Origin: Octopus vulgaris
Lineage: Eukaryota
Direction of reading: 5' to 3'
DNA: 64,000 bases
Assembly (NCBI GenBank): GCA_951406725.2
Contig: OX597841.1
Coordinates: 22,320,001 to 22,384,000, forward strand
Part shown: positions 1 through 57,979 of the stretch, one piece after another
Position numbering within the stretch: the first letter of the stretch is position 1
How the letters are laid out: each line of letters starts with the position of its first letter
Program-made: the position numbers and the translations under genes
The notes under the pieces: generated by a model
What the model was told of the DNA's origin: nothing
The model's input: the letters and a program-made list of their open reading frames with translations, nothing else
The model's database searches: none

Positions 1-1973
1 CCGGTTAAAGCGCTACTCTGGGAGAATGATTTGCCACAGATATCACAGTGATATGGTGTCTCTCCTGTATGAATACGTTTATGAGTAGTTAGGTTACTGC
101 TGGCAGAGAAGGATTTGTTACAGATGTCACAGTGATGTGGCTTCTCTCCTGTATGAATACGTTTATGATCTGTCAAAGCACAGTTGCGAGGGAATGATTT
201 ACCACATATATTACAAGAATATGGTTTCTCTCCTGTATGTGTACGTTTGTGAGAAGCGAGAGCACTACAACGTGAGAATGATTTACTACAGATGTTACAC
301 TGATATGGCTTCTCTCCTGTATGAATGCGTTTGTGAGAATTGGAAGCACTTTGGTCAGAGAAAGATTTACCACACACATCACAGTGATATGGCTTCTCGC
401 CAGTATGAATACGTTTGTGTCTAGTCAATTTGTTATTTGCAGAGAATGATTTACCACAAATGTCACAGCGAAATCGCTTTTCCCCTGTATGAACAATCGT
501 GTGTGAATTTAAAGCACTCTGTTGAGAGAATGATGTACCACAGACATCACAGTGAAAGGGCTTCTCTCCTGTATGAATACGTTTGTGTACAAGCAATTCG
601 TAACTTGTACAGAATGATTTACCACAGATATCACAGTGGTATGGCTTTTCTCCTGTATGGAAACGTTTATGGATAGCTAAGTTGCCAAGTTGAAAGAATG
701 ATTTACCACAGATTTCACAGTGAAATGGCTTCTCTCCTGTATGAATGCGTTTGTGTTTAGTTAGGGTACTTCTACGAGAGAAAGTTTTATTACAGACATC
801 ACAGTGAAATGGCTTCTCTCCGGTATGGATATATTTATGTTCAGCTAAGTTGTCATTTCGGGAGAATGATTTACCACAGATATCACAAGAATAAGGTGTC
901 TCTCCTCTATGAATACGCTTGTGAATAGTCAGAATACTACTTACAGAGAAAGACTTGTTACAGATGTTGCAGCGATATGGCTTCTCACCCGTATGAATAC
1001 GTTTGTGAGAAGTTAAACTGCTTTTGCTTGAGAGCGATTTGCCACAGATATTACAGGAATATGGTGTCTCAACTGAATGAATATGTTTGTGCCTATCCAA
1101 GCCACCCTTTTGTGAGAATGATTTACTACAGATGTTACACTGATATGGCTTCTCTCCTGTATGAATACGCTTGTGAGAAATGACAACACTTCGGTCAGAG
1201 AATGATTTACCACAGATGACACAGTGAAATGGCTTCTCCCCTGTATGAATACGTTTATGAGTAATTAGGGTATTACTCTGAGAGAAAGATTTGTTACAGA
1301 TGTTGCAGTGATATGGCTTCTCCCCTGTATGAATACGTTTATGAGAAGTTAGCTGATTACTGACACAAAAAGATTTGTTGCAGATGTCACAGTGATATGG
1401 TTTCTCTCCTGTATGAACACGTCTGTGAGCAGTCAAAGAACTGCTGAGAGAAAATGATCTACTGCAGATATTACAAGAATATGGTGTCTCTCCTGTGTGA
1501 ATACGTTTATGATCAGTTAAAGTATTACTGTGAGAGAATGATTTACCACAGATGTCACAGTGAAATGGCTTCTCTCCTGTATGAACACGTTGGTGTGAAA
1601 TCAACTCCATTTTCTGAGAGAATGATTTACCACAAACATCACAGTGAAATGGCTTCTCTCCTGTATGAATACGTTTGTGTGTAGTCAATCTGCTATTTGC
1701 AGAGAATGATTTACCACAAATGTCACAGCGAAATGGCTTCTCTCTTGTATGAATACGTTTGTGTCTAGTCAATTTGCTATTTGCAGAGAATGATTTACCA
1801 CAAATGTCACAGTGAAATGGCTTTTCACCTATATGAATACATTTCTGCTTATTCAAGTTACCCTTTTCAGAGAAGGACTTTTTACAGACATCACATTCGT
1901 GTGACAATATACGTCTCTTCTTCACTTTGTCTTCTAGAAAAGTCAAATCCTTTGGTTCCTCACTATTTTCCAT
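1..1973 (-). CDS. C2H2 zinc-finger protein, gene 1 (3' end outside window; at least 22 finger units)
   Basis: ATG at 1973 gives [21 protein letters not shown], followed by 84-bp finger repeats with TGEKP linkers running off the left edge. Absent from the ORF track, consistent with no stop in the window; frame only spot-checked. Confidence 0.88.
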   Translation of the reverse strand, partial: MENSEEPKDLTFLEDKVKKRRILSHECDVCKKSFSEKGNLNKQKCIHIGEKPFHCDICGKSFSANSKLTRHKRIHTREKPFRCDICGKSFSANSRLTTHKRIHTGEKPFHCDVCGKSFSQKMELISHQRVHTGEKPFHCDICGKSFSHSNTLTDHKRIHTGETPYSCNICSRSFSLSSSLTAHRRVHTGEKPYHCDICNKSFCVSNQLTSHKRIHTGEKPYHCNICNKSFSQSNTLITHKRIHTGEKPFHCVICGKSFSDRSVVISHKRIHTGEKPYQCNICSKSFSQKGGLDRHKHIHSVETPYSCNICGKSLSSKSSLTSHKRIHTGEKPYRCNICNKSFSVSSILTIHKRIHRGETPYSCDICGKSFSRNDNLAEHKYIHTGEKPFHCDVCNKTFSRRSTLTKHKRIHTGEKPFHCEICGKSFFQLGNLAIHKRFHTGEKPYHCDICGKSFCTSYELLVHKRIHTGEKPFHCDVCGTSFSQQSALNSHTIVHTGEKRFRCDICGKSFSANNKLTRHKRIHTGEKPYHCDVCGKSFSDQSASNSHKRIHTGEKPYQCNICSKSFSRCSALASHKRTHTGEKPYSCNICGKSFPRNCALTDHKRIHTGEKPHHCDICNKSFSASSNLTTHKRIHTGETPYHCDICGKSFSQSSALT

Positions 1974-2490
1974 TTTATTTCTTTGAAAATCACAATAAAT
2001 ATATTTTTTCCTTCTCTTTGCTTCTACACTATTTTGTTTACAAATGTTTCAACTGCTGTATTTCTGTCCAGTAAATTTATCCAAGTTTAATTTCCACACA
2101 GACACATCTTGTAGACACTCCAGCCAGTGAAGTCCAGAAAGTTTGCTAAGAACACATTTCAAAGTGGAATTCTATGACACATTTTCAGAAACAATCTTAT
2201 ACATCTGTTCTGTACAATATTTTGGTCTTTAAAAGATGATAAATAATGAGAATGTATCTTCAGTTATGCCAATGTCATCTGATATTCTGAAATAATAAAG
2301 AAACAACAGTGTAAGATATAGAGGCTACTTAAAAAATACAGATTCAACATTTCCATAAAGATAAACTCTAGAAATAAACATTTAACTGAACAACAGAATT
2401 TTAAATTTATTAAAATTTACATCTTATGTGAAGCTAACATATTTGTAAACTCCAATTACACATTCACATTTAAAAATAAATACACACACA

Positions 2491-2890
2491 AGGCACAGGA
2501 GTGGCTGTGTGGTAAGTAGCTTGTTTACCAACCACATGGTTCCGGGTTCAGTCCCATTGCATGGCACTTTGGGCAAGTGTCTTCTACTATATCCTCAGGC
2601 CGACCAATGCCTTGTGAGTGGATTTGGTAGACGAAACTGAAAGAAGCCCGTCGTATATATGTATATATATATATATATATGTGTGTGTTTGTGTTTGTCC
2701 CCCTAGCATTGATTGATAACCGATGCTGGTGTGTTTATGTCCCCGTTACTTGGCGCTTCGGCAAAAGAGACCCATAGAATAAGTACTGGGCTTACAAAAG
2801 TATAAGTCCCGGGGTCGAGTTGCTCGATTAAAAAGGCGGTGCTCCAGTATGACCGCAGTCAAAATGACTGAAACAAGTAAAAGAGAAAAG
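2491..2890 (+). mobile_element. tRNA-derived SINE family A; copies at ~10328-10735, 18350-18680, 22435-24662 (interrupted), 34951-35350, 42204-44425 (interrupted), 60540-60946, 60970-61131
   Basis: A box GTGGCTGTGTGGTAAG, B box GGTTCAGTCCC, internal (TA)n/(TG)n tract; resembles described octopus SINEs, family name not verified. Confidence 0.75.
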
Positions 2891-3327
2891 AGTACACACA
2901 CACACACACACACAGTGAGAACAGTCAAAATCAAAATCAAAGGAAATGAAATCAGATATCAGAAAGCAGAACCAAAATCGAGGTCGATCAACATCAGTGG
3001 AAGTTGCAGCAGTGGTTAAGCGAACCATCCGATCGTGGTCGCTGCCGGCGCCGCCTGGCCCCCGGGCCAGTGGCACGTAAAAGCACCATCCGTTCGTGTC
3101 CGCTGCCAGCCTCGCCTGGCCCCCGGGCCGGTGGCACGTAAAAAGCACCCACTACACTCATTGGAGACAAGATCGGGATTCGTAGTGGGTGGGAAAAACA
3201 AATGGGGAAACGATGGAGCGTGTAGAAGGTAGGCTCCATAGCTAGAAATAGCAGCCAAATGTCGCACACATCAAAGGACATCTAAAACACCAAAGTATTG
3301 AAAGATTAAACGATTTCATTGTTTAAT

Positions 3328-3500
3328 ACTTACGGAAATGTCTTTATAAAGGATGGTGTTGTTGTTAGAAGTGCGTCAGGTGGTTGAGAAATGTATTATA
3401 AATGTGTTTGGGAGTGAATTGAGAGAAATTCTGGCACCAGACATGTGCGCAGAGATTTCAGGAATGGAGGCGGAAATACGCTTAGTGCGCATGCGTATGA
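3328..3500 (-). promoter_or_regulatory. Putative promoter and non-coding exon 1 of gene 1
   Basis: TGCGCATGCG (NRF-1 consensus) at ~3486, GGCGGAAAT nearby, minus-strand donor TCC|GTAAGT at 3333; matching acceptor TTTCTTTATTATTTCAG at 2288-2287. Confidence 0.65.
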
Positions 3501-3589
3501 AACATTCATTTCACATTTTGTCACAAGGCCAGCAATTTCGGTGACAGTGGGTGGGTCCCTAAAGTCGATTACACGAAGCTTAATGGGTT

Positions 3590-4376: not shown

Positions 4377-4408
<32 letters not shown>

Positions 4409-4410
<2 letters not shown>

Positions 4411-4690: not shown

Positions 4691-4717
4691 AAGAATAAAA
4701 TTCTAATCATTCTGGAT

Positions 4718-7995: not shown

Positions 7996-9822
7996 TCATG
8001 TATGAATACGCTTGTGAGAAGTTAAGTTACTAGTTTGAGAGAATGATTTGCCACAGCTATCGCAGTGATATGGCTTCTCTCCTGTATGAATATGCTTGTG
8101 CATAGTCAAAGAAGAACTTACAGAAAATGATAGACCACAGATGTCACAGTGGTATGGCTTCTCACCTGTATGAATACGCTTGTGCATAGTCAAAGAAGAA
8201 CTTACAGAAAATGATAGACCACAGATATCACAGTGGTATGGCTTCTCACCTGTATGAATACGTTTGTGATAAGTTAAAGTGTTGTTGCGAGGGAATGATT
8301 TACCACATATATTACAAGAATATGGTTTCTCTCCTGTATGTGTACGTTTATGATAAGTTAAAGAGGAGTTGCGAGGGAATGATTTACCACATATATTACA
8401 AGAATATGGTTTCTCTCCTGTATGTGTACGTTTGTGAGAAGTGAGAGAACTACTATGAGAGAATGATTTACTACAGATGTTACACTGATATGGCTTCTCT
8501 CCTGTATGAATGCGTTTGTGAGAATTGGAAGCACTTTGGTCGGAGAAGGATTTACCACACACATCACAGTGATATGGCTTCTCTCCAGTATGAATACGTT
8601 TGTGTTTAGTCAAGTTATTATTTTGAGAGAATGATTTACCACAAATATCACAGCGAAATCGCTTTTCCCCTGTATGAACAATCGTGTGTGAATTTAAAGC
8701 ACTCTGTTGAGAGAATGATGTACCACAGACATCACAGTGAAAGGGCTTCTCCCCTGTATGAATACGTTTGTGTACAAGCAATTTGGAACTTTTACAGAAT
8801 GATTTACCACAGATATCACAAGAATATGGTGTTTCTCCTGTATGAATACGTTTATGAGTAATTAGGTTACTACTGGTAGAGAGAGATTTGTTACAGACAT
8901 CACAGTGAAATGGCTTCTCTCCCGTATGGATATATTTATGTTTAGCTAAGTTGTCATTTCGGGAGAATGATTTACCACAGATATCACAAGAATAAGGTGT
9001 CTCTCCTGTATGAATACGCTTGTGTACAAGCAATTTGGAACTTTGAGAGAATGATTTACCACAGATATCACAAGAATATGGTGTTTCTCCTGTATGAATA
9101 CGTTTATGACTAATTAGGTTACTACTGGTAGAGAGAGATTTGTTACAGACATCACAGTGAAATGGCTTCTCTCCCGTATGGATATATTTATGTGTAGCTA
9201 AGGTGTCATTTCGGGAGAATGATTTACCACAGATATCACAAGAATAAGGTGTCTCTCCTGTATGAATACGCTTGTGAATAGTAAGATTACTAATTACAGT
9301 GAAAGACTTGTTACAGATGTTGCAGCGATATGGTTTCTCTCCTGTATGAACACGTTTGTGAGCAGTCAAAGAACTGCTGCTAGAAAATGATTTACTACAG
9401 ATATTACAGGAATATGGTGTCTCTCCTGTGTGAATACGTTTATGATGCGTTAAAGTACTACTGTGAGAGAACGATTTACCACAGATGTTACAGTGAAATG
9501 ACTTCTCTCCTGTATGAACACGTTGGTGTGAAATCAACTCCATTTTTTGAGAGAATGATTTACCACAGATATCACAGTGAAATGGTTTCTCTCCTGTATG
9601 AATACGTTTGTGTCTAGTCAAGTTGCCATTTGCAGAGAATGATTTACCACAAATGTCACAGTGAAATGCCGTTTCACCTGTATGAATACATTTCTGCTTA
9701 TTCAAGTTACCCTTTTCAGAGAAGGACTTTTTACAGACATCACATTCGTGTGACAATATACGTCTCTTCTTCACTTTGTCTTCTAGAAAAGTCAAATCTT
9801 TTGGTTCCTCACTATTTTCCAT
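7996..9822 (-). CDS. C2H2 zinc-finger protein, gene 2 (21 finger units)
   Basis: ORF 7996..9876 (GTG start); the first ATG at 9822 matches the paralogous start MENSEE. Pattern CxxC-x12-H-x3-H with TGEKP linkers. Confidence 0.95.
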   Translation of the reverse strand: MENSEEPKDLTFLEDKVKKRRILSHECDVCKKSFSEKGNLNKQKCIHTGETAFHCDICGKSFSANGNLTRHKRIHTGEKPFHCDICGKSFSQKMELISHQRVHTGEKSFHCNICGKSFSHSSTLTHHKRIHTGETPYSCNICSKSFSSSSSLTAHKRVHTGEKPYRCNICNKSFTVISNLTIHKRIHTGETPYSCDICGKSFSRNDTLATHKYIHTGEKPFHCDVCNKSLSTSSNLISHKRIHTGETPYSCDICGKSFSQSSKLLVHKRIHTGETPYSCDICGKSFSRNDNLAKHKYIHTGEKPFHCDVCNKSLSTSSNLITHKRIHTGETPYSCDICGKSFCKSSKLLVHKRIHTGEKPFHCDVCGTSFSQQSALNSHTIVHTGEKRFRCDICGKSFSQNNNLTKHKRIHTGEKPYHCDVCGKSFSDQSASNSHKRIHTGEKPYQCNICSKSFSHSSSLTSHKRTHTGEKPYSCNICGKSFPRNSSLTYHKRTHTGEKPYSCNICGKSFPRNNTLTYHKRIHTGEKPYHCDICGLSFSVSSSLTMHKRIHTGEKPYHCDICGLSFSVSSSLTMHKHIHTGEKPYHCDSCGKSFSQTSNLTSHKRIHT

Positions 9823-10498
9823 TTTATTTCTTTGAAAATCACAATAGATATATTTTTTCCTTCTCTTTGCTTCCACACTGTTTTGTTTACAAATATTTCA
9901 ACTGCTGTATTTCTGTCCAGTAAATTTATCCAAGTTTAATTTCCACACAGACACTCCAGCCAGTGAAGTCCAGAAAGTTTGCTAAGAACACATTTCAAAG
10001 TGGAATTCTATGACACATTTTCAGAAACAATCTTATACATCTGTTCTGTACAATATTTTGGTCTTTAAAAGATGAAAAATAATTAGAACGTATCTTCAGT
10101 TATGCCAATGTCATCTGATATTCTGAAATAATAAAGAAACAACAGTGTAAGATATAGAGGCTACTTAAAAAATACTGATTCAACATTTCCATAAAGATAA
10201 ACTCTAGAAATAAACATTTACCTGAACAACAGAATTTTAAATTTATTAAAATTTACATCTTATGTGAAGCTAACATATTTGTAAACTCCAATTACACATT
10301 CACATTTAAAAATAAATACACACACAAGGCACAGGAGTGGCTGTGTGGTAAGTAGCTTGTTTACCAACCACATGGTTCCGGGTTCAGTCCCGTTGCATGG
10401 CACTTTGGGCAAGTGTCTTCTACTATATCCTCAGGCCGACCAAAGCCTTGTGAGTGGATTTGGTAGACGGAAACTGAAAGAAGCCCGTCGTATATATG

Positions 10499-10533
<35 letters not shown>

Positions 10534-11113
10534 TTGTGTTTGTCCCCCTAGCATTGATTGATAACCGATGCTGGTGTGTTTATGTCCCCGTTACATGGCG
10601 GATCGGCAAAAGAGACCCATAGAATAAGTACTGGGCTTACAAAAGTATAAGTCCCGGGGTCGAGTTGCTCGATTAAAAAGGCGGTGCTCCAGTATGACCG
10701 CAGTCAAAATGACTGAAACAAGTAAAAGAGTAAAGAGTACACACACACACACACACACACAGTGAGAACAGTCAAAATCAAAATCAAAGGAAATGAAATC
10801 AGATATCAGAAAGCAGAACCAAAATCGAGGTCGATCAACATCAGTGGAAGTTGCAGCAGTGGTTAAGCGAACCATCCGATCGTGGTCGCTGCCGGCTCCG
10901 CCTGGACCCCGGGCCGGTGGCACGTAAAAAGCACCCACTACACTCATTGGAGACAAGATCGGGATTCGTAGGGGGTGGGAAAAACACTTGGGGAAACGAT
11001 GGAGCGTGTAGGAGGTTGCCGCCATAGCTAGAAATAGCAGCCAAATGTCGCACACATCAAAGGACATCTAAAACACCAAAGTATTGAAAGATTAAATGAT
11101 TTCATTGTTTAAT

Positions 11114-11290
11114 ACTTACGGAAAAGTCTTTATAAAGGATGGTGTTGTTGTTAGAAGTGCGTCAGGTGGTAGAGAAATGTATTATAAATGTGTTTGGGAG
11201 TGAATTGAGAGAAATTCTGGCACCAGACATGTGCGCAGAGATCTCAGGAATTGAGGCGGAAATGCGATTAGTGCGCATGCGTATGAAATA
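11114..11290 (-). promoter_or_regulatory. Putative promoter and exon 1 of gene 2
   Basis: Same module; donor at 11119, acceptor at 10124-10123, YY1-like ATGGCGGC at ~11018-11025. Confidence 0.65.
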
Positions 11291-14200
11291 TTCATTTCAC
11301 CTTTTGTCACAAGGCCAGCAATTTCGGTGAGGGGGGAGGAGTGGTGCCTAAAGTCGATTACACGAACCTTAGTGGATGGAAGCACTCCGTCGGTTACGAC
11401 GACGAGGGTTCCGGTTGATCCGAATCAACGGAACAGCCTGCTCGTGAAATTAACGTGTAAGTGGCTGAGTACTCCACAGACACGTGCACCCTTAACGTAG
11501 TTTTCGGGGATATTCAGCGTGACACAGAGTGACAAGGGCGGCCCCTTGAAATACAGGTACAACAGAAACAGGAAGTAAGAGTGAGAGAAAGTTGTGGTGA
11601 AAGAGTACAGCAGGGATCACCACCATCCCCTGCCGGAGCCTCGTGGAGCTTTTAGGCGTTTTCGCTCAATAAACACTCACAACGCCCGGTCTGGGAATCG
11701 AAACCGCGATCCTATGACCGCGAGTCCGCTGCCCTAACCACTGGGCCATTGCGCCTCCACTAACGAACCTTAGTAGTCAACTGGTTATTTATTTTATTGA
11801 CCCGCCAAAAAAAAGGCGAAAGGCAAAACTGACCCCGAAACGATGAAAGGCACAGTCGACTTCCCGGAGTTTCGGCATACGTAGAAAAGGTGCACCCTGC
11901 CTACTGGATCGATTCAATCTGACGTGTGATTTAGGTAGGGGGATTCTTTGGCTGCTATTTTTAGCGAGTCGAGCGGCCAGGTAGAGGCTCTTTCATTGGT
12001 TTGATTGCGTGATGAGATTTTTTGACACCTATACGTACGTATATATATATATATATCATCGGCAGAAGTCTGAGAGTAAGTCAAAAGCTAAGAGTTTCAA
12101 GTATTGGCACTCATGAAACACGAATTTGGCCATTGTCACTCTGTAACTTCTGCCTATCATTAACGTGTGTGTCTATATATATATATATATATATCATCAT
12201 CATCACCATCATCGTTTAACGTCCGTTTTAAGTACTAGCATGGGTTGGACGGTTCGACCGGGGTCTCGTAAGCCATGGAGGCTGCACCAGGCTCCAGTCT
12301 GATTTGGCAGTGTTTCTACAGCTGGATGCCCTTCCTAACGCCAACCACTCCGTGAGTGTAGTGGGTGATTTTTACGTGCCACCGGCACAGGAGCCAGAGT
12401 AGGCTGGCAAACAGCCACGATCGGTTGGTGCTTTTACGTGTCACCGACACAGACGCCAATGAGGCGACGCTGACAAGAATAAAATTCTAATCATTCTGGA
12501 TTATGCATTAACTGGTGTAGTAGGTGTCCCTGGAGTTACCATAAGTAAACAAATGACAAGAAGATCTAGGACTGTTATTTATTACAACCCCTTATAAAAA
12601 TACATGGCAAATGTCTTACAAATTGTGAAGTAACAGGTTTGGCAAGTTTTAACTAACTCTATCTGGAACAGTGGGAGTTGTATCACAGTTGAAATTCTGT
12701 AGCATGTTCATGGTTTGGTTCCGTGTGTTGGGCAGCATCTGTTGTTGTGATCTGTCCGTTGCTGTGGAGGAAGTACAAATTTACCAGGCCAGAGAGAGAG
12801 AGATCAGGATGAAGACAGAAACAGGTGTGCCGCCACAAAGGAGATACATGGTTACCCAGCCTGAGGGACATGCAGGAGAAGGAGATAGAGGGTGGGAGAC
12901 AACACGATGGAGATACTGGCAAAATGATGGGCGTATTCACTAGGGAGGGGATCAGAACATAAATGGGGATGGTTGAGTAAGGGAAGAAAGAGATATAGAT
13001 GGTGGCAAGGGCCAGGACATACCCTTAAGGTTCAAACGTCATAATATAAGGGACAGGATACTGTAAATGTGGCGAGCTGGCAGGAACGTTAGGCTCTGAG
13101 TTCAAATTCCGCTGAGGTCGACATCCTTTCGGGGTCGATTAAATAAGTACCAGTTACGCACTGGAGTCGATATAATCGACTTAATCCCTTTGTCTGTCCT
13201 TGTTTGTCTCCTATCTGTGTTTAGCCCCTTGTGGGTAGTAAAGGAATAGGATACTGCAAAGGAAGCATGATTAGAGTGTAGGGGGTGTTGAGTTTTAACG
13301 AACTCTATCTGGAACAGTGGAAGTTGTATCACAGTTGAAATTCTGTAGCATTGGTTATGAGTTTTGCTTGCGAATTAACTGTGGCTGGTTCATCTTGATG
13401 TACCTGTGTGTTGTTATGCATTCACTGGTCTAGTCTGTCTGCCTGGAGTTACCGAATACAAAAGAATGACAAGAAGAACCACGTAAATTCAATGCGATTT
13501 ATTTATTACAACCCTTTATAAAAATACATGGCAAATGTCTTACAAATTGTGAAGTAACAGGTTTGGCAAGTTTTAACGAACTCTATCTGGAACAGTGGGA
13601 GTTGTATCACAGTTGAAATTCTGTAGCATCTTCCTGGTTTGGTTCTGTGTGCTGGGCAGCATCAGTTGTCCTGATCTCATCTCCATCTCTCCTTCTTTCT
13701 CTCTGCACAAAAACGGTAAGAACCATTCCTTATATAATGACTGGTGGTCCAGAAGAGAAACTACTATCTTCAGTGCTTGCAATTTCACTTGGCTTCATGT
13801 ACCTTCTTGTTTGTAATGATTTAACCCTTTCGTTACTGTATTTATTTTGAGATGCTCTGTTTCTTTCAATTACTTTAAATATAACAAAGAATTTAGTAAA
13901 ATAACTTAGTTATCATTGAGCTAGTGTTAGGAGCATATATTGTGACTAAGATTTGGTTGAAGATTTGAATTCAAAACTTATGGAAACAAGACATTTGTAC
14001 TCAGAGCCAGAGGTGGTTAGTAATGAAAGGGTTAAAGATTAATAGCCAGGAAGACAATATGCTTCCTATAAATATAAATGTTGGGTTTCTTTCAGTTTCC
14101 CTCTAAAAAACCCACTCACAAGGGTTTGTTCGGCTTAATGTTCTAGTAGAATAGACTTGCATAAGGTGCCATGTAGTGGGACTGATCCCAGAAGCATGCA

Positions 14201-15645: not shown

Positions 15646-17220
15646 TCATGTATGAATACGCTTGTGAGAAGTTAAGGCACTACTATGAGAGAATGATTTG
15701 CCACAGCTATCACAGGGATATGGCTTCTCTCCTGTATGAATACGCTTGTGACCAGTTAAAGCGCTACTCTGGGAGAATGATTTGCCACAGATATCACAGT
15801 GATATGGCTTCTCTCCTGTATGAATACGCTTGTGCATAGTCAAAGAAGTACTTAGAGAAAATGATAGACCACAGATATGACAGTGGTATGGCTTCTCACC
15901 CGTATGAATGCGTTTGTGACCAGTTAAAGCGCTACTCTGAGAGAAAGATTTGCCACAGATATCGCAGTGATATGGCTTTTCTCCTGTATGAATGCGTTTG
16001 TGATAATTAGAAGTACTTTTGTGAGAGAAGGATTTACCACACACATCACAGTGATATGGCTTCTCGCCAGTATGAATACGTTTGTGTCTAGTCAAACTGT
16101 CATTTGCAGAGAATGTTTTACCACAAATCTCACAGCGAAATGGCTTCTCTCCAGTATGAATATGTTTGTGTCGAGTCAATTTGTCATTTGCAGAGAATGA
16201 TTTACCACAAATGTCACAGCTAAATTGCTTTTCCCCTGTATGAACAATCATGTGGTAATTTAAAGCACTCTGTTGAGAGAATGATGTACCACAGACATCA
16301 CAGTGAAAGGGCTTCTCCCCTGTATGGAAACGTTTATAGGTAGCTAAGTTGTCATTTCGGGAGAATGATTTACCACAAATGTCACAGCTAAATCGCTTTT
16401 CCCTTGTATGAACAATCGTGTGTGAATTTAAAGCACTCTGTTGAGAGAATGATGTACCACAGACATCACAGTGAAAGGGCTTCTCTCCTGTATGAATACG
16501 TTTGTGTACAAGCAAATCGGAACTTGTACAGAATGATTTACCACAGATATCACAGTGGTATGGCTTCTCTCCTGTATGGAAACGTTTATGGGTAGCTAAG
16601 TTGTCATTTCGGGAGAATGATTTACCACAAATGTCACAGCGAAATCGCTTTTCCCCTGTATGAACAATCGTGTGTGAATTTAAAGCACTAAGGTTAGAGA
16701 ATGATGTACCACAGACATCACAGTGAAAGGGCTTCTCTCCTGTATGAATACGTCTGTGTACGAGCAATTCGGAACTTGTACAGAATGATTTACCACAGAT
16801 ATCACAGTGGTATGGCTTCTCTCCTGTATGGTAACGTTTATGAGTAGCTAAGTTGCAAAGGTGAAAGAATGATTTACCACAGATATCACAGTGGTATGGC
16901 TTCTCTCCTGTATGGCAACGTTTATGAGTAGCTAAGTTGCTACTTTGAGAGAACGATTTACCACAGATTTCACAGTGAAATGGCTTTTCGCCCGTATGAA
17001 TACGTTGGTGTGTGGTCAAGTTACTACTTACAGAAAATGATTTACCACAGACGTCACAGTGAAATGGCTTCTCTCCTGTATGAATACGTTTGTGCTTATT
17101 CAAGCTGCCCTTTTGAGAGAAAGACTTTTTACAGACATTACAATTATGCGATAATTTCAGTCTCCTCTTTGATTTTTCTTCTGGAAAAGTCAAATCCTTT
17201 GCTTTCTCACTCTTCTCCAT
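15646..17220 (-). CDS. C2H2 zinc-finger protein, gene 3 (18 finger units)
   Basis: 524-aa ORF of tandem C2H2 fingers with an MEKSEKAK leader variant. Confidence 0.95.
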   Translation of the reverse strand: MEKSEKAKDLTFPEEKSKRRLKLSHNCNVCKKSFSQKGSLNKHKRIHTGEKPFHCDVCGKSFSVSSNLTTHQRIHTGEKPFHCEICGKSFSQSSNLATHKRCHTGEKPYHCDICGKSFFHLCNLATHKRYHTGEKPYHCDICGKSFCTSSELLVHRRIHTGEKPFHCDVCGTSFSNLSALNSHTIVHTGEKRFRCDICGKSFSRNDNLATHKRFHTGEKPYHCDICGKSFCTSSDLLVHKRIHTGEKPFHCDVCGTSFSQQSALNSHTIVHTREKRFSCDICGKSFSRNDNLATYKRFHTGEKPFHCDVCGTSFSQQSALNYHMIVHTGEKQFSCDICGKSFSANDKLTRHKHIHTGEKPFRCEICGKTFSANDSLTRHKRIHTGEKPYHCDVCGKSFSHKSTSNYHKRIHTGEKPYHCDICGKSFSQSSALTGHKRIHTGEKPYHCHICGLSFSLSTSLTMHKRIHTGEKPYHCDICGKSFSQSSALTGHKRIHTGEKPYPCDSCGKSFSHSSALTSHKRIHT

Positions 17221-40027: not shown

Positions 40028-41686
40028 TCATGTATGAATACGCTTGTGAGAAGTTAAGGCACTACTACGAGAGAATGATTTGCCACAGATGTTACACTGA
40101 TATGGCTTCTCTCCTGTATGAATGCGTTTGTGAGAATTGGAAGCACTTTGGTCAGAGAAAGATTTACCACAGATGACACAGTGATATGGCTTCTCGCCAG
40201 TATGAATACGTTTGTGTCTAGTCAAATTGTTATTTGTAGACAATGATTTACCACAAATGTCACAGCGAAATCGCTTTTCCCCTGTATGAACAATCGTGTG
40301 TGAATTTAAAGCACTCTGTTGAGAGAATGATGTACCACAGACATCACAGTGAAAGGGCTTCTCTCCTGTATGAATACGTTTGTGTACAAGCAATTCGTAA
40401 CTTGTACAGAATGATTTACCACAGATATCACAGTGGTATGGCTTCTCTCCTGTATGGAAACATTTATGGGTAGCTAAGTTGCCAAGTTGAAAGAATGATT
40501 TACCACAGATTTCACAGGGAAATGGCTTCTCTCTTGTATGAATACGTTTGTGACTATTTAAGAGACCTTTTTGTGAGAAAGACCTTTTACACACATCACA
40601 GTGATACGGCTTCTCTCCTGTATGGATATATTTATGTTTAGCAAAGTAGTCATTTCGGGAGAATGACTTACCACAGATATCACAAGAATAAGGTGTCTCT
40701 CCTCTATGAATACGCTTGTGAATAGTCAGATTACAACTTACAGAGAAAGACTTGTTACAGATGTTGCAGCAATATGGCTTCTCACCCGTATGAATACGTT
40801 TGTGAGAAGTTAAACTGCTTTTGCTTGAGAGCGATTTGCCACAGATATTACAAGAATATGGTGTGTTAACTGAATGAATATGTTTGTGCCTAACCAAGCC
40901 ACCTTTTTGAGAGAATGATTTACTACAGATGTTACACTGATATGGCTTCTCTCCTGTATGAACACGCTTGTGAGAAATGAAAGTACTTCGGTCAGAGAAT
41001 GATTTACCACAGATGACACAGTGAAATGGCTTCTCCCCTGTATGAATACGTTTATGAGTAATTAGGTTATTACTCAGAGAGAAAGATTTGTTACAGATGT
41101 TGCAGTGATATGGCTTCTCCCCTGTATGAATACGTTTATGAGAAGTTAGCTGATTACTGACACAAAAAGATTTGTTGCAGATGTCACAGTGATATGGTTT
41201 CTCTCCTGTATGAACACGTCTGTGAGCAGTCAAAGAACTGCTGCTAGAAAATGATTTACTGCAGATATTACAAGAATATGGTGTCTCTCCTGTGTGAATA
41301 CGTTTATGACCAGTTAAAGAACTACTGTGAGAGAACGATTTACCACAGATGTCACAGTGAAATGGCTTCTCTCCTGTATGAACACGTTGGTGTGAAATCA
41401 ACTCCGTTTTTTGAGAGAATGATTTACCACAGATTTCACAGTGAAATGGCATCTCTCCTGTATGAATACGTTTGTGTATAGTCAATTTGCTATTTACAGA
41501 GAATGATTTACCACAAATGTCACAGTGAAATGGCTTTTCACCTGTATGAATACATTTCTGCTTATTCAAGTTACCCTTTTCAGAGAAGGACTTTTTACAG
41601 ACATCACATTCGTGTGACAATATACGTCTCTTTTTCACTTTGTCTTCTAGAAAAGTCAAATCCTTTGGTTCCTCACTATTTTCCAT
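40028..41686 (-). CDS. C2H2 zinc-finger protein, gene 6 (19 finger units)
   Basis: 552-aa ORF; paralogue of gene 4 lacking 5 fingers. Confidence 0.95.
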
Positions 41687-43897: not shown

Positions 43898-43945
<48 letters not shown>

Positions 43946-44818: not shown

Positions 44819-44990
44819 ACTTACGGAAAAGTCTTTATAAAGGATGGTGTTGTTGTTAGATGTGCGTCAGGTGGTTGAGAAATCTATTACAAATGTGTTT
44901 GGGAGTGAATTAAGAGAAATAATGGCACCAGACATGTGCGCAGAGATATCAGGAATGGAGGCGGAAATACGTTTAGTGCGCATGCGTATG
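44819..44990 (-). promoter_or_regulatory. Putative promoter and exon 1 of gene 6
   Basis: Donor at 44824, NRF-1 motif at ~44977, acceptor at 42001-42000. Confidence 0.65.
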
Positions 44991-45865
44991 AAACATTCAT
45001 TTCACATTTTGTCACAAGACCAGCAATTTCGGTGAGGAGGGGGGTGTGGTGCCCAAGTCGATTACGCGAAGCTTAATGGGTGGAAGCATTCCGTCGGTTA
45101 CGACGACGAGGGTTCCGGTTGATCCGAATCAACGGAACAGCCTGCTCGTGAAATTAAAGTGTAAGTGACTGAGCACTCCACAGAGACGTGTACCCTTAAC
45201 GTAGTTCTCGGGGATATTCAGCGTGACACAGAGAGTGACAAGGCCGGCCCCTTGAAATACAGGTACAACAGAAACAGGAAGTAAGAGTGAGAGAAAGTTG
45301 TGGTGAAAGAGTACAGCAGGGATCACCACCATCCCCTGCCGGAGCCTCGTGGAGCTTTTAGGTGTTTTCGCTCAATAAACACTCACAACGCCCGGTCTGG
45401 GAATCGAAACCGCTCTCCTATGACCGCGAGTCCGCTGCCCTAACCACTGGGCCATTGCGCCTCCACTAACGAACCTTAGTAGTCAACTGGTAATTTATTT
45501 TATTGACCCGCCAAAAAAAAGACGAAAGGCAAACCTGACCCCGAAACGATGAAAGCACAGTCGACTTCCCGGAGTTTCGGCATACGTAGAAAAGGTGCAC
45601 CCTGCCTACTGGATCGATTCAATCTGACGTGTGATTTAGGTAGGGGGATACTTTGGCTGCTATTTTTAGCGAGTCGAGCGGCCAGGTAGAGGCTCTTTCA
45701 TTGGTTTGATTGCGTGATGAGATTTTTTGACACCTATACGTACGTATATATATATATCATCGGCAGAAGTCTGAGAGTAAGTCAAAAGATAAGAGTTTCA
45801 AGTATTGGCACTCATGAAACACGAATTTGGCCATTGTCACTCTGTAACTTCTGCCTATCATTAAC

Positions 45866-45912
<47 letters not shown>

Positions 45913-49850: not shown

Positions 49851-52181
49851 TCATGTATGAATACGCTTGTGAGAAGTTAAGGCACTACTATGAGAGAATG
49901 ATTTGCCACAGCTATCACAGGGATATGGCTTCTCTCCTGTATGAATACGCTTGTGTTTAGTCAAAGAAGGATTTACAGAAAATGATAGACCACAGATATC
50001 ACAGTGATATGGCTTCTCTCCTGTATGAATACGCTTGTGATTAGTCAAAGAAGGACTTACAGAAAATGATAGACCACAGATATCACAGTGGTATGGCTTC
50101 TCACCTGTATGAATACGCTTGTGACTAATTAAAGCACTACTTACAGAAAATGATAGACCACAGATATCGCAGTGATATGGCTTTTCTCCTGTATGAATAC
50201 GTTTATGAGTAGTTAAAACGCTACTCCGAGAGAATGATTTGCCACAGATATCACAGTGGTATGGCTTCTCACCTGTATGAATACGTTTATGATAAGTTAA
50301 AGCGGTGTTGCGAGGGAATAATTTACCACATATATTACAAGAATATGGTTTCTCTCCTGTATGAATACGTTTATGATAAGTTAAAGCGGTGTTGCGAGGG
50401 AATGATTTACCACATATATTACAAGAATATGGTTTCTCTCCTGTATGTGTACGTTTGTGAGAAGTGAGAGAACTACTATGAGAGAATGATTTACCACATA
50501 TATTACAAGAATATGGTTTCTCACCTGTATGTGTACGTTTGTGAGAAGTTAAAGTGGTGCTGAGAGGGAATGATTTACCACATATATTACAAGAATATGG
50601 TTTCTCTCCTGTATGTGTACGTTTGTGAGAAGTGAGAGAACTACTTCGAGAGTATGATTTACCACATATATTACAAGAATATGGTTTCTCTCCTGTATGA
50701 ATACGCTTGTGACTACTTAAAGCAGCTTGGTCGGAGAAGGATTTAGCACAGACATCACAGTGATATGGCTTCTCTCCAGTATGAATACGTTTGTGTTTAG
50801 TCAAGTTATAACTTTGAGAGAATGATTTACCACAAATATCACAGCCAAATCGCTTTTCCCCTGTATGAACAATCGTGTGTGAATTTAAAGCACTAAGGTT
50901 AGAGAATGATGTACCACAGACATCACAGTGAAAGGGCTTCTCTCCTGTATGAATACGTTTGTGTACAAGCAATTTGGAACTTTCACAGAATGATTTACCA
51001 CAGACATCACAGTGGTATGGCTTCTCTCCTGTATGAACACGTTTGTGATTCATTAGGGTACTTCTATGAGAGAAAGATTTATTACAGACATCACAGTGAT
51101 ACGGCTTCTCTCCTGTATGGAAACGTTTGTGATTAGTTAATGTGTCACTTCGGGAGAATGATTTACCACAGATATCACAAGAATATGGTGTCTCTCCTGT
51201 ATGAATACGCTTGTGAATAGTCAGATTACTACTTACAGAGAAAGACTTGTTACAGATGTTGCAGCAATATGGCTTCTCACCCGTATGAATACGTTTGTGA
51301 GAAGTTAAACTTCTTTTGCTTGAGAGCGACTTGCCACAGATATTACAGGAATATGGTGTCTCAACTGAATGAATATGTTTGTGCGTATCCAAGACACCCT
51401 TTTGAGAGAATGATTTACTACAGATGTTACACTGATATGGCTTCTCTCCTGTATGAATACGCTTGTGAGAAATGAAAACACTTCGGTCAGAGAATGATTT
51501 ACCACAGATGACACAGTGAAATGGCTTCTCTCCTGTATGAACACGCTTGTGAGTAGTTAGGGTACTCAAGTGACAGAAAGATTTGTTACAGATGTTGCAG
51601 TGATATGGCTTCTCCCCTGTATGAATACGTTTATGAGAAGTTAGCTGACTACTGACACAAAAAGATTTGTTGCAGATGTCACAGTGATGTGGTTTCTCTC
51701 CTGTATGAACACGTCTGTGAGCAGTCAAAGAACTGCTGCTAGAAAATGATTTACTGCAGATATCACAAGAATATGGTGTCTCTCCTGTGTGAATACGTTT
51801 ATGATCAGTTAAAGTATTACGGTGAGAGAATGATTTACCACAGATTTCACAGTGAAATGGCTTCTCTCCTGTATGAACACGTTGGTGTGAAATCAACTCC
51901 ATTTTTTCAGAGAATGATTTACCACAAACATCACAGTGAAATGGTTTCTCTCCTGTATGAATACGTTTGTGTCTAGTCAAGCCATCTTTTCGAGAGAATG
52001 ATTTACCACAGATGTCACAGTGAAATGCCTTTTCACCTGTATGAATACGTTTGTGCTTATTCAAGTTACCCTTTTCAGAGAAGGACTTTTTACAGACATC
52101 ACGTTTATGTGACAATATACGTCTCTTCTTCACTTTGTCTTCTAGAAAAGTCAAATCCTTTGCTTCCTCACTATTTTCCAT
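49851..52181 (-). CDS. C2H2 zinc-finger protein, gene 7 (27 finger units; no adjacent exon 1)
   Basis: ORF 49851..52235, first ATG at 52181; intact frame; splice acceptor retained at 52522-52523. Confidence 0.93.
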   Translation of the reverse strand: MENSEEAKDLTFLEDKVKKRRILSHKRDVCKKSFSEKGNLNKHKRIHTGEKAFHCDICGKSFSRKDGLTRHKRIHTGEKPFHCDVCGKSFSEKMELISHQRVHTGEKPFHCEICGKSFSHRNTLTDHKRIHTGETPYSCDICSKSFSSSSSLTAHRRVHTGEKPHHCDICNKSFCVSSQLTSHKRIHTGEKPYHCNICNKSFCHLSTLTTHKRVHTGEKPFHCVICGKSFSDRSVFISHKRIHTGEKPYQCNICSKSFSQKGVLDTHKHIHSVETPYSCNICGKSLSSKRSLTSHKRIHTGEKPYCCNICNKSFSVSSNLTIHKRIHTGETPYSCDICGKSFSRSDTLTNHKRFHTGEKPYHCDVCNKSFSHRSTLMNHKRVHTGEKPYHCDVCGKSFCESSKLLVHKRIHTGEKPFHCDVCGTSFSNLSALNSHTIVHTGEKRFGCDICGKSFSQSYNLTKHKRIHTGEKPYHCDVCAKSFSDQAALSSHKRIHTGEKPYSCNICGKSYSRSSSLTSHKRTHTGEKPYSCNICGKSFPLSTTLTSHKRTHTGEKPYSCNICGKSFSHSSSLTSHKRTHTGEKPYSCNICGKSFPRNTALTYHKRIHTGEKPYSCNICGKLFPRNTALTYHKRIHTGEKPYHCDICGKSFSRSSVLTTHKRIHTGEKPYHCDICGLSFSVSSALISHKRIHTGEKPYHCDICGLSFSVSPSLTNHKRIHTGEKPYHCDICGLSFSVNPSLTKHKRIHTGEKPYPCDSCGKSFSHSSALTSHKRIHT

Positions 52182-52725
52182 TTTATTTCTTTGAAAATCA
52201 CAATAGATATATTTTTTCCTTCTCTTTGCTTCCACACTGTTTTGTTTACAAATATTTCAACTGCTGTATTTCTGTCCAGTGTTACTTTTGTCTGAATACT
52301 CTCTAGTAAACTTATCGAAGTTTAATTTCCACACAGACACATCTTGTAGACACTCCAGCCAGTGAAGTCCAGAAAGTTTGCTAAGAACACATTTCAAAGT
52401 GGAATTCTATGACACATTTTCAGAAACAATCTTATATATCTGTTCTGTACAATATTTTGGTCTTTAAAAGATGATAAATAATGAGAATGTATCTTCAGTT
52501 ATGCCAATGTCATCTGATATTCTGAAAGAATAAAGAAACAATAGCGTAAGATACAGAGGCTACTTAAAAAAATACAGATCAAACATTTCCATAGAGGTAA
52601 ATTCTAGAAATAAGCATTTACCTGAAGAACAGAATTTTAGATTTATTAAAATTTACATTTGAAAATCTTATGTGAAGCTAAAATATTTCTAAACTCCAGC
52701 TACACATTCACATTTAAAAATAAAT

Positions 52726-52795
<70 letters not shown>

Positions 52796-52847
52796 TCAAC
52801 TAATAAGGGTGAAAAAATTGGGTACTAATTTAATAGTCCCATCTTTT

Positions 52848-52921
<74 letters not shown>

Positions 52922-52922
52922 G

Positions 52923-54221
52923 AGGCTGCCTAACACAGCTCCTGCAACACTATGACTGGGTGTTGAAACAGCTACTAAATGGCTCAAATGTGGATGTAAT
53001 ATATCTCGACTTTGCAAAAGCCTTTGATAAGGTCGACCATGGTATGATCTGTCACAGGTGGAGAACTTGGAGAGTGGCTGCACAACTTCCTAAAAGACAG
53101 AGAACAGGCAGTTCTGAGCAAGGAAACGCAAGTAACAAGCGGTGTCCCACAGGGCACTGTCTTGGGGCCACTGATGTTCGTAGTGGCCCTTTCAGACATG
53201 CCTTCAGTTGCTACGATGACCACCCTTGCTAGCTATGCAGATGACACAAAAGTCTCCCACGCAATACAAAACCCTGAAAATATTGCGCATCTCCAACAGG
53301 AGTTGGATTCAATATACAGGCAGGCTGAGGACAACAACATGCAGTTTAATGCAGCTAAGTTCCAGGCCCTGTGCTACCGGCACACAAAGGTAAACGACGT
53401 GCAGACTGGATACACTGGCCCAGGAAGAATTGCAATCCCTGAGTCAAAATCAGTGCGTGACCTGGGCATTGACATGAGCAATGATGCATCTTTCCAAATG
53501 CATATTGCTAATCTGGTGATGAAATGCAGACGGCTAGCTGGATGGATTCTCCGAACTTTCAGAACAAGAGAGAAGGAGACACTGATGGTCCTATGGAAAA
53601 CATTCGTCCTCAGCCGCTTGGACTACTGCTCCCAACTGTGGTCACCACACAATATAAAACTAACAGCAGAACTTGAAGCAATTCAGAGAAGCTACACAAA
53701 GAAAATCGTCTCAATGCAAAATATCAGCTACTGGGAAAGACTGAAGGTATTAAACCTCTTCTCCCTAGAGCGGAGGCGGGAGAGATATGCGGTGATATAC
53801 ATCTGGAAAATCCTGGAGGGTCTTGTCCCAAACTTTGGCATTCAAAGTTACCCCAACCGCAGAACGGGGCGCCACTGCATGGTGCCAAAGATTCCAACAT
53901 CACCATCAAAATACAGGTCTAGATACTGCAACAGCTTGGGTTTCAGAGGACCACAGCTCTTTAACATCCTCCCTAAATGCCTGAGAGACTTACATGGTGT
54001 GGATGTGGGTTTCTTTAAAACTAAACTGGATCTCTTCTTGTCGGGAGTCCCAGATGAACCTACCTCACGACAGGAGATGCGGACGCGGGCAGCAGCATCG
54101 AACTCCCTTGTTGATCAAGTGCCACATATCAGAAGTAGATTCACAAATTAGTGTAGTTCATTCAGCGGTGGTGCCCCAGCATGGCTGCGGCCTTCGGGCT
54201 AATACATTTTTAAGGATTTAA

Positions 54222-54226
<5 letters not shown>
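52923..54226 (+). mobile_element. 5'-truncated, degenerate CR1/L2-group LINE (reverse transcriptase C-terminal part and 3' UTR)
   Basis: RT motifs VIYLDFAKAFDKV, SGVPQGTVLGP (across a frameshift), YADD, RDLGI, RLDYCSQLWSP and SLERRR; flanked by (TA)n. Confidence 0.85.
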
Positions 54227-54267
<41 letters not shown>

Positions 54268-54270
<3 letters not shown>

Positions 54271-56735
54271 AATGTCCTGCGCTGTGAGGATGAAAGACTT
54301 GAGGCATTTCGTGTTGCAAGACAGTGTGTGAGAGAGAATCGTGACGTGGTAGGAGAGAAATGTGTTCGCAAGGATGACGGTTCACTTGCGCTAAATGAGG
54401 ATGCCAAGAGAGAGGCTTGGAGACGCCACTATGAAAGGTTGCTGAATGAGGAAAATGAATGGGATAAAGAGAGTCTGCCGAATGTCGACCCAACAGAGGG
54501 ACCAGCAATCCGAGTTAACAGCTCCTTAGTAGTTAAGGCAATTAGAAGCATGAAAACAGGGAAAGCCCCAGGCCCATCAGGAATTACTGCAGAGATACTC
54601 AAAATATCTGGTAGTGTCGGCTATAGCATAGTCACCCGTATAGTTAACCAGGTGATACACGAAGGAGTCATACCCAATGACTGGTGTAGCAGCATAATAG
54701 TCAACTGCTACAAAGGTAAAGGTGACACCCTAGATACAAATAACTACAGGGGCATCAAGCTGCTGGATCAGGTAATGAAGGTTACGGAGAGGGTTATAGC
54801 CCAATTAATTAGAGAGAGAGTTAGCTTAGATGATATGCAGTTTGGGTTCGTGCCAGGGAAAAGTACTACTGATGCTATATTCCTGGTAAGACAGCTGCAG
54901 GAGAAATACCTAGCCAAAGATAAGCCCTTGTACCTGGCTTTTGTTGACTTGGAGAAAGCCTTTGACAGAGTCCCCCGATCCCTTATCTGGTGGTCAATGA
55001 GGAAACTAGGGATAGATGAATGGTTAGTGAGAGCTGTGCGAGCCATGTACAGAGACGCTGCTAGTAAGGTGAGGGTTGGCAACGAGTACAGTGAAGAATT
55101 CCGAGTAGAGGTTGGGGTCCACCAAGGTTCAGTCCTCAGTCCCCACCTATTTATCATAGTCCTCCAGGCAATAACGGAGGAATTCAAGACAGGATCCCCC
55201 TGGGAGCTCCTCTATGCTGATGACCTTGCTCTAATTGCTGAGTCACTATCAGAACTGGAGGAGAAGTTTCAGGTGTGGAAACAAGGATTATAATTGAAGG
55301 GCCTTAGAATCAACCTAGCCAAAACCAAAGTCCTAATAAGTAAGAAGGTGAACCAATCACAAACGACTTCAGGTAGATGGCCCTGCTCGATCTGTAAAAA
55401 AGGTGTAGGTAGAAACTCTATAAGGTGCACCAAGTGTAAGCTATGGACACATAAGAGGTGCAGCAATGTCAAAGGAGGGCTAACTAGGAAAATAGTTTTT
55501 GTCTGTGGCAGATGCTCAGGAGCAATAAACACTGGAAATGTGCAGAGACCAACTTCTACCACGTTCCAAGGAGACAAACTAGAAGTAGTTGATAGCTTCC
55601 GCTACCTAGGAGACCAAGTCAGTAGCGGGGGTGGGTGTGCTGAAAGTGTAACTGCTAGAGTAAGAATAGCCTGGGCAAAGTTTAGAGAGCTCTTACCCCT
55701 GCTGGTGACAAAAGGCCTCTCGCTCAGAGTAAAAGGCAGACTGTATGATGCATGTGTATGTACAGCCATGCTACATGGTAGTGAAACATGGGCCGTGACT
55801 GCTGAGGATATGCGTAAGCTCACAAGAAATGAAGCCAATATGCTCCGATGGATGTGTAATGTCAGTGTTCATAATCGTCAGAGTATAAGTACCTTGAGAG
55901 AAAAGTTGAACCTAAGAAGTGTCAGTTGTGGTGTGCAAGAGAGACGGCTGCGCTGAAATGGTCATGTGACGAGAATGGCTGAAGATAGTTGTGTGCAAAA
56001 GTGCTACACCCTAGCAGTTGAGGGAACCTGTGGAAGAGGTAGACCCAGGAAAACCTGGGACAAGGTGGTGAAGCACGACCTTCGAACTTTAGGTCTCACC
56101 AAGGAAATGACTAGAGATCAAGACCTATGGAAGTATGCTGTGCGTGAGAAGACCCGGCAAGACTAGACAGGCCATAATCCGTGGCCCCTACCTGGGACGT
56201 AGTCAGTCCACCTGTGCATACCTTCCTTCTTGTGACACTTGTTAAGACCTGTTGAGGCAAGTGAAAATCAAACCAAATCAAAATAGATGAACATCAATGG
56301 AATTTGTATCTTTGTGGTACCAGTGCCGGTGGCACACAAGGAAACCATCCGAACGTGGCCGTAGCCAGTACCGCATAACACCATCCGTTGTGGCCGTTCG
56401 CCAGCCTCATCTGGCACCTGTGTCGGTGGCACATAAAAAACACCATCCGAGTGTGGCCGTCTGCCAGCCTCATCTGGCACCTGTGTCGGTGACACATAAA
56501 AAACACCATCCGAGCATGGCCATTCGCCAGCCTCGTCTGGCACCTGTGTCGGAGGCACATAAAATCACCCACTACACTCTCGGAGTGGTTGGCGTTAGGA
56601 AGGGCATCCAGCTGTAGAAACACTGCCAGATCTGACTGGCCTGGTGCAGCCTTCGGGCTTCCCAGACCCCAGTTGAACCGTCCAACCCATGCTAGCATGG
56701 AAAGCGGACGTTAAATGATGATGATGATGATGATG
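54268..56735 (+). mobile_element. 5'-truncated RTE-clade LINE with in-frame stops, internal PHD-like finger, repetitive 3' UTR and (GAT)n tail
   Basis: Three collinear in-frame ORFs (54328-55293, 55294-55956, 55966-56166) carrying KAPGPSG, NYRGI, QFGF, FVDLEKAFD, GVHQGSVLSP, YADD, FRYLG and RGRPRKTW. Confidence 0.88.
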
Positions 56736-56760
56736 ATATATATATATATATATATATATA

Positions 56761-57068
56761 CTAGCAGAAATACCTGGCATTGCCCACTTATGGAAAATAA
56801 CAAATTTTCAATATACCTTTTAGATCACTAACCTAAGATAGATTACAGAGGGGTTACTTCCCCGTAGCTAAGGTACCAACTTTATGCATTAATAACCTAG
56901 TGTTTCCCAGGTTGTTGAAACTAATGAAATTTAAGTATGCCTTTTAAATCTTTCAGTAAAATGGAACATGGATTATGTAGTTCTCGACAATTAGCTGAAG
57001 TACAAACTATTAATGTCAATAATATTTTTTATCTGATGTTCTCACTGTTAAAAACCAGGTAGTTCTTT
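56761..57068 (-). mobile_element. Second copy of the Helitron-like remnant, cut by the gene 7/8 deletion
   Basis: Near-identical to 17886-18195. Confidence 0.5.
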
Positions 57069-57979
57069 GGCTTCTCTCCTGTATGAATACGTTTGAGTAC
57101 AAGCAATTCGTAACTTGTACAGAATGATTTACCACAGATATCACAGTGGTATGGCTTCTCTCCTGTATGGAAACGTTTATGAGTAGCTAAGTTGCCAAGT
57201 TGAAAGAATGATTTACCACAGATTTCACAGTGAAATGGCTTCTCTCCTGTATGAATGCGTTTGTGATTAGTTAGGGTACTTCTTTGAGAGAAAGATTTAT
57301 TACAGACATCACAGTGATACGGCTTCTCTCCTGTATGGAAACGTTTGTGATTAGTTAATGTGTCATTTCGGGAGAATGATTTACCACAGATATCACAAGA
57401 ATAAGGTGTCTCTCCTCTATGAATACGCTTGTGAATAGTCAGATTACTACTTACAGAGAAAGACTTGTTACAGATGTTGCAGCGATATGGCTTCTCACCC
57501 GTATGAATACGTTTGTGAGAAGTTAAACTTCTTTTGCTTGAGAGCGATTTCCCACAGATATTACAAGAATATGGTGTCTCAACTGAATGAATATGTTTGT
57601 GCCTATCCAAGCCACCCTTTTGAGAGAATGATTTACTACAGATGTTACACTGATATGGCTTCTCTCCTGTATGAATACGCTTGTGAGAAATGAAAACACT
57701 TCGGTCAGAGAATGATTTACCACAGATGACACAGTGAAATGGCTTCTCTCCTGTATGAATACATTTGTGTATAGTCAATCTGCCATTTGCAGAGAATGAT
57801 CTACCACAGATGTCACAGTGAAATGCCTTCTCTCCTGTATGAATACGTTTGTGCTTATTCAAGTTACCCTTTTCAGAGAAGGCCTTTTTACAGACATCAA
57901 GTTCGTGTGACAATATACGTCTCTTCTTCACTTTGTCTTCTAGAAAAGTCAAATCCTTTGGTTCCTCACTCTTCTCCAT
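57029..57979 (-). pseudogene. 3'-truncated C2H2 zinc-finger gene 8 (10 finger units, first and last degenerate)
   Basis: The finger array breaks at ~57068 (TGEKP|KNYLVFNSENIR*) into sequence matching gene 3 intron 17886-18195. The last finger has H->L. It could still encode a 316-aa protein. Confidence 0.75.

Follow-up and report, generated by a model that had tools for sequence, protein, structure and literature searches.

The window examined in this study is a 64,000-nucleotide stretch of the Octopus vulgaris genome (assembly GCA_951406725.2, contig OX597841.1, positions 22,320,001 to 22,384,000). A six-frame scan revealed eight C2H2 zinc-finger open reading frames (ORFs; g1 to g8) between positions 1 and 57979, which form a tandem array in a large Octopus cluster. 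We consider it likely that these genes are young tandem duplicates of one poly-C2H2 gene that have undergone positive selection at DNA-contact residues, and that they serve as a diversifying repertoire of DNA readers whose sequence-specific binding is predicted from the pattern of selection. The eight genes contain 160 finger units of 84 bases (24, 21, 18, 24, 17, 19, 27 and 10 in g1 to g8, respectively), 151 of which are canonical fingers, with an 84-base period, 77% TGE[K/T]P linkers and a match to Pfam zf-C2H2. All eight are tandem (poly) C2H2 genes, in which C-x2-C-x12-H-x3-H is repeated at least five times per protein. The copies are regarded as young because their non-coding divergence is mostly 1–5%; among the window paralogues it ranges over 1.5–4.2% in the 3′ flank and 0.9–5.7% in the 5′ untranslated region (UTR), and reaches up to 6–10% upstream of g8.

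Selection was evaluated at the DNA-contact positions −1, 2, 3 and 6 by building a minimum spanning tree for each finger class and counting the changes along it; the 151 canonical fingers entered this count, and nine non-canonical units were left out. With 10% clustering and a kappa of 4.3, the contact positions had accumulated 89 nonsynonymous and 6 synonymous changes, giving a dN/dS ratio (ω) of 4.4 (class bootstrap 2.7–7.1) versus 0.62 elsewhere. The corresponding values were 3.7 and 0.57 at 15% clustering, and 3.09 and 0.47 when kappa was fixed at 2. The four fastest of the 24 positions were exactly −1, 2, 3 and 6 at both clustering thresholds. Codon-model likelihood yielded ω of 3.07–3.57 at contacts, 0.11–0.12 at structural sites and 0.56–0.61 at other sites, with twice the log-likelihood difference from ω = 1 at 46–61; this test treats spanning-tree edges as independent, thereby producing p-values that are too small. 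As a safeguard against circularity, homology was also assigned by collinear alignment on non-helix bases only, and contact pN exceeded pS in 27 of 28 gene pairs under this scheme, with ratios of 3.28 and 3.19 in two sets of four independent pairs. Null simulations without positive selection (n = 160; 120 with conversion from non-homologous fingers) gave mean ω of 1.08–1.15 and a maximum of 1.77.

An initial annotation, made from the DNA letters and their translations, had described a rapidly diversifying repertoire in which differences cluster in the recognition helix while scaffolds stay nearly fixed, and had itself proposed comparing contact and scaffold dN/dS. That comparison, which could have refuted the proposal, did not do so. 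The differences are indeed concentrated at −1, 2, 3 and 6, where ω is about 3.1–3.6 versus about 0.6 for the variable scaffold across four methods, and the diversification of the repertoire is marked by positive selection at DNA-contact residues. Near fixity holds for the zinc ligands and the hydrophobic core (ω about 0.12–0.18) but not for the other scaffold positions (about 0.5–0.8).

The genes can be read as products of deletion and local duplication from a single master array that had about 24 fingers. In clustering at 10% nucleotide distance, 144 of the 160 units fell into classes common to at least two genes, and the nearest relative of 146 units lay in another gene (median identity 98.6%, versus 80.6% within the same gene); identity among the fingers of a gene is 70% over the whole finger and 79% over the scaffold. 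All 11 motifs that had been named as recurring across paralogues in differing subsets were found, each in two to six of the eight genes, as were the finger-2 series (ANGNLTR in g2 and g5, TNSKLTI in g4, VNSKLTI in g6, RKDGLTR in g7 and ANGRLTI in g8) and the RNDT, RNDN, RNDY and RSDT variants. The description of this vocabulary as shuffled was not borne out: the order of single-copy shared finger pairs in the window genes was concordant in 1142, 1176 and 1009 cases and discordant in 0, 0 and 4 at three clustering thresholds, whereas randomised orders in a 10-gene set were about 50% concordant. Between genes, entire 84-base units have been lost or duplicated in frame; g5 corresponds to g2 minus a three-finger and a one-finger duplication, and g6 to g4 minus five fingers. 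Paralogues also exchange sequence to some degree, probably in register, and the mosaicism is visible at silent or non-coding sites, where compatibility is higher between neighbours than between distant sites (p = 0.007; 42 informative sites in six of the eight genes).

Rates of change differ among fingers. The finger-2/17 class, to which g1 units 2 and 18 (about 1749–1811 and 405–467) and g4 units 2 and 17 belong, is the most variable, with 13 contact signatures in 16 copies. Fingers 2 and 17/18 of the same gene are 92–96% identical in g1 and g4, and such near-identity of distant fingers suggests long-range conversion or an old block duplication. The QQSALNS finger (e.g. 489–551, 8674–8736 and 26518–26580) is nucleotide-identical in six of the eight genes and has diverged neighbours, a uniformity that points to recent conversion or strong constraint.

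Each gene lies inside a duplicated unit of about 6–10 kb, with long blocks 91–97% identical among copies. The unit comprises a non-coding exon 1, an intron and a single exon holding about 300 untranslated bases, a leader of 24–26 residues and the entire array. Gene g4 is inverted (plus strand), and the other seven genes lie on the minus strand. The features are listed below with window coordinates, strand and, for coding sequences, length in amino acids (aa).

1–1973, minus: g1 coding sequence, 692 aa, 24 units; final 2 units and stop outside the window, about 105 bases to its left
3334–3544, minus: g1 copy of non-coding exon 1, 96% identical to g2 exon 1; GT donor present
7996–9822, minus: g2 coding sequence, 608 aa, 21 units; compared with g5, three fingers duplicated internally and one finger duplicated
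9745–9822, minus: g2 leader, 26 residues of the MENSEE...LSHE type, common to 44 ORFs in 464 kb; without Pfam match
10123–11119, minus: g2 5′ UTR intron, GT-AG; joint 10122–11120 in runs X3, X5 and X8
11120–11330, minus: g2 non-coding exon 1; 5′ limit approximate, zinc-finger frame holds stops
15646–17220, minus: g3 coding sequence, 524 aa, 18 units; big 5′ deletion, blocks of two to three fingers repeated
19254–19464, minus: g3 copy of non-coding exon 1
21783–21993, plus: g4 copy of non-coding exon 1
25180–27258, plus: g4 coding sequence, 692 aa, 24 units; inverted copy that matches O. sinensis P0081 without a difference over its first 101 aa
32942–34432, minus: g5 coding sequence, 496 aa, 17 units; differs very little from its sister g2
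35735–35945, minus: g5 copy of non-coding exon 1
40028–41686, minus: g6 coding sequence, 552 aa, 19 units; sister of g4 minus five fingers, last finger a deletion-made chimaera
44825–45035, minus: g6 copy of non-coding exon 1
49851–52181, minus: g7 coding sequence, 776 aa, 27 units; lacks its own exon 1 copy and has many contact changes private to it
57029–57979, minus: g8 coding sequence, 316 aa, 10 units; 3′ end cut and fused to intron-like sequence
59136–59300, minus: g8 copy of non-coding exon 1

Within 52181–59300, a deletion appears to have taken the 3′ half of g8 together with the first exon of g7, thereby fusing the g8 coding sequence to intron-like DNA. Gene g8 is probably a dying copy, and g7, which has an intact 27-unit frame, may be spliced from the first exon of g8 or be promoterless. 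Broken copies occur in the cluster. Unit 1 is degenerate, with the first His or first Cys lost, yet it is kept in g1, g2 and g4–g8 (e.g. 9670–9750); it is intact in g3. Upstream of g7, two reverse-transcriptase fragments of long interspersed nuclear element (LINE) type (Pfam RVT_1) lie within 53048–55956, the second broken by a stop. Between g8 and the next gene, at 59410–60315, a 291-base unit is repeated in tandem (2.8 copies with 91% matches), and a short degenerate (CCCTAA)n telomere-like repeat at 62058–62160 lies near a divergent pair of first exons (59136–59300 and 62748–62960).

Transcription of the family is supported by splicing seen in three sequencing runs that are probably RNA. 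The GT-AG joint 10122–11120 (minus strand) occurred in runs X3, X5 and X8, from three studies, and had a depth of 0 in DNA run X2; the joints listed are 15 of 970, some X2 joints are uncounted, the runs are labelled as RNA by guess, and any paralogue could be the source. Run X3 also contained one 72-base perfect match that is private to g7 within the 464 kb. Reading across the g2 splice revealed in-frame stops upstream of the ATG, and therefore no upstream effector exon is used by the observed splice. Among the Pfam families shown for g2, only zinc-finger families were above the cut-off, besides spurious repeat-driven matches; KRAB matched neither g2 nor the N-terminal 50 aa of g2 and g3 among the families shown, nor the leader. 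No match to KRAB, SSXRD or SET was obtained in the scanned proteins, whose ORFs consist of leader and fingers only. As had been proposed at the outset, the window genes carry no known effector domain by these scans.

The leader opens 44 ORFs in the 464 kb around the window, and these ORFs carry 7–26 canonical fingers. It has the core K-[ED]-L-[IT]-F-P-E and lies in the same exon as the array. Its ω is 0.61 over 34 distinct sequences, similar to that of the variable scaffold, although a few positions are nearly fixed. One leader query returned at least 129 matches at E ≤ 1 in the 2.8-Gb genome, 120 of which were on this contig. Other leader-bearing subclusters on the contig (22.24–22.30, 22.44–22.63, 2.3–3.3 and 6.4–11.6 Mb) contain broken copies, and contact selection is weaker in those that were tested. 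A leader profile compared with 1.84 billion representatives gave seven hits: five were proteins of three Octopus species, one was an unnamed zinc-finger protein that bears the leader, and one (P0155) was discounted as an unrelated repeat. Judged by these matches, the leader is restricted to Octopus. No close full-length orthologues were found in other Octopus species, from which only fragments with the leader were recovered.

The leader may be a FiNZ-like accessory motif, or only a decayed linker. Its basic stretch is of a kind that we take to be possibly nuclear-localising. The string PKDLT within it was considered as a CtBP-binding motif, the consensus of which is of the PxDLS type, and was set aside, the proline being present in only 9 of the 44 leaders. 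On a speculative and rather doubtful reading, the leader would be a cryptic motif that recruits a corepressor. The octopus genes that share it, numbering in the hundreds, would then form a third KRAB-like system for silencing transposons, evolved independently and engaged in an active arms race, and the eight genes of this subcluster would be its current hot spot.

Several observations weigh against the interpretation of g1 to g8 as DNA readers diversified by selection. The likelihood p-values are optimistic, and the structural-site ω is biased low, with only the canonical fingers counted (151 of 160). The youngest pair, g2 and g5, is the sole exception among the 28 pairs and has no excess at contacts (pN 0.007 vs pS 0.010). 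The flanking genes give a weaker signal (ω 1.56–1.67), close to the highest values of the smaller null simulations, and some finger classes barely vary, QQSALNS having three contact signatures in nine copies. Many contact residues are small (Ser occupies +2 in 83 fingers and +6 in 53, out of 151), and by recognition rules such residues read bases weakly. The truncation of g8, the lack of a first exon of its own in g7, the guessed RNA labels and the uncounted part of the X2 joints belong on the same side. On a separate point, allelic variation between animals or species was sought in short assembled contigs of 70–165 bases, in which paralogues are mixed with alleles; contact codons accounted for 7 of the 10 differences listed in g7 units 5–22, and these differences, being unassignable to alleles, were not used.

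The conserved order of finger pairs bears directly on combinatorial shuffling, in which interchangeable finger modules would be drawn from a common pool and assembled into genes in novel orders. This model is very unlikely and was rejected for this window: the near-identity of fingers 2 and 17/18 within g1 and g4, a misplaced RNDNLAK finger in a neighbouring gene left of the window, three chimaeric fingers among 204 units and 12 discordant pairs out of 1656 (10-gene set, one threshold) speak for it, but such ectopic events are rare, the pair order largely refutes it, and an exact whole-helix donor in a different scaffold was found for 0 of 48 edges in the 464 kb searched. Helix swapping from unrelated fingers was likewise rejected as an origin of the signal, for the 464 kb searched, on the basis of this donor search, the simulations and tract removal; a tract donor was found for 4 of 23 edges, and ω was 3.05 after those edges were dropped. 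A further explanation holds that redundant copies turn over under neutral or relaxed conditions and that gene conversion or biased mutation, in place of selection, produced the helix excess. Contacts have no elevated synonymous rate (0.77–0.96 of the pooled rate), the interleaved positions +1, +4 and +5 are far lower, edges with at most three changes still give ω of 3.61, and no simulation with conversion reaches 1.8. Exposure to CpG differs little (0.099 vs 0.068), and the changes at contacts are rich in transversions. These results make neutral turnover improbable, although it would accommodate the mosaic paralogues, the broken copies in the cluster and several edges with 4–7 helix changes but 0–1 scaffold change, the donor search having been confined to 464 kb.

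Under the preferred explanation, adaptive diversification of young duplicates, unequal crossing-over would generate gene copies together with finger gains and losses, in-register conversion or crossing-over would mix the paralogues, and selection would favour point changes that alter binding specificity. By analogy with the KRAB and FiNZ systems, the moving targets could be young repeats or transposons, which we regard as about an even call. Silencing might proceed by occlusion or via a partner protein, as proposed because no known effector domain is present. The same mechanism would operate if the selection is real and the target alone differs, namely, host regulatory DNA (neural cell-type diversification) or satellites in place of transposons. 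We treat this alternative as a serious contender, albeit one that falls somewhat short of probable. The lack of any repressor domain found is in keeping with it, as is a report that nervous tissue is the main site of expression of the expanded cephalopod C2H2 genes, which are divided over co-expression modules (PMC12513265). By contrast, an ω of about 3 among copies only a few percent diverged would fit conflict better than developmental tuning, and motifs predicted for octopus zinc fingers are over-represented in the consensus sequences of transposons (PMC10547256). A 2025 paper calls the choice between neural regulation and a transposon arms race in the cephalopod C2H2 expansion an open question (PMC12513265).

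Comparison with known systems separates two likenesses that the initial annotation had drawn together, namely, to PRDM9 and to KRAB zinc-finger proteins (KRAB-ZFPs). With PRDM9, the octopus arrays share positive selection at −1, 2, 3 and 6. They differ in lacking KRAB, SSXRD and SET, in not being homogenised (70% identity within a gene, and 146 of 160 units closest to a unit elsewhere) and in holding their diversity between paralogous genes. The within-array contact share of the window genes, by a calculation not identical to the published PRDM9 one, is 0.31–0.35, at the bottom of the range of 0.29/0.33 to 1.0 given for full-length PRDM9 (bioRxiv 10.64898/2026.09.07.749791). Over the 101 residues in which g4 is identical to the O. 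sinensis protein, its paralogues differ by 4–16 residues. These differences, with no upstream coding exon by the observed splice, render a PRDM9-like recombination-hotspot reader with its effector in trans extremely improbable, and PRDM9-like dynamics are not upheld.

The KRAB-ZFP-like dynamics are upheld by contact selection and finger gain and loss among recent paralogues. Like KRAB-ZFPs and other vertebrate poly-zinc-finger genes, for which the mouse KRAB-ZFP clusters serve as a comparison (PMC5363842), the octopus genes combine young tandem paralogues, selection at helix contacts, whole-finger gain and loss and some gene conversion; they differ in having no KRAB domain and in belonging to a mollusc. 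Emerson and Thomas 2009 reported contact-residue selection in vertebrates and its absence in the two insects tested (PMC2604467). The FiNZ-ZNFs of zebrafish are alike in their independent expansion outside tetrapods, their short family-specific N-terminal sequence and their base-contact selection, whereas the octopus leader has only 24–26 residues, lies in the array exon and is weakly constrained (ω 0.61). Wells et al. 2023 applied dN/dS and knockdown in zebrafish and included octopus for predicted transposon binding and per-position entropy, with highly variable base-contacting positions in octopus (PMC10547256). The hemipteran ZF271-like/APEZ family (PMC6444547) resembles the octopus genes in its invertebrate host, lack of an effector, tandem clusters of four to eight genes, variable finger number and turnover; it differs in its varying gene structures, and the available text gives no codon-level selection result.

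The window cluster is part of the known cephalopod C2H2 expansion, which has been described in terms of phylogeny, chromosomal clustering and expression (PMC12513265, PMC9068888). A literature search, with most subscription papers outside its reach, found no codon-level selection test on cephalopod zinc fingers. Paralogues that are near-identical except for a few contact residues and finger counts (g4/g6 and g2/g5) provide a ready panel for naming the target by binding assay. A strong signal of codon-level selection, probably for new DNA specificity, in a KRAB-less invertebrate family favours conflict-like dynamics. The evolutionary mechanism itself was already known, and the pattern shown in vertebrates is now extended to molluscs: good evidence indicates that a zinc-finger family without a known effector has diversified adaptively in the manner of KRAB genes.

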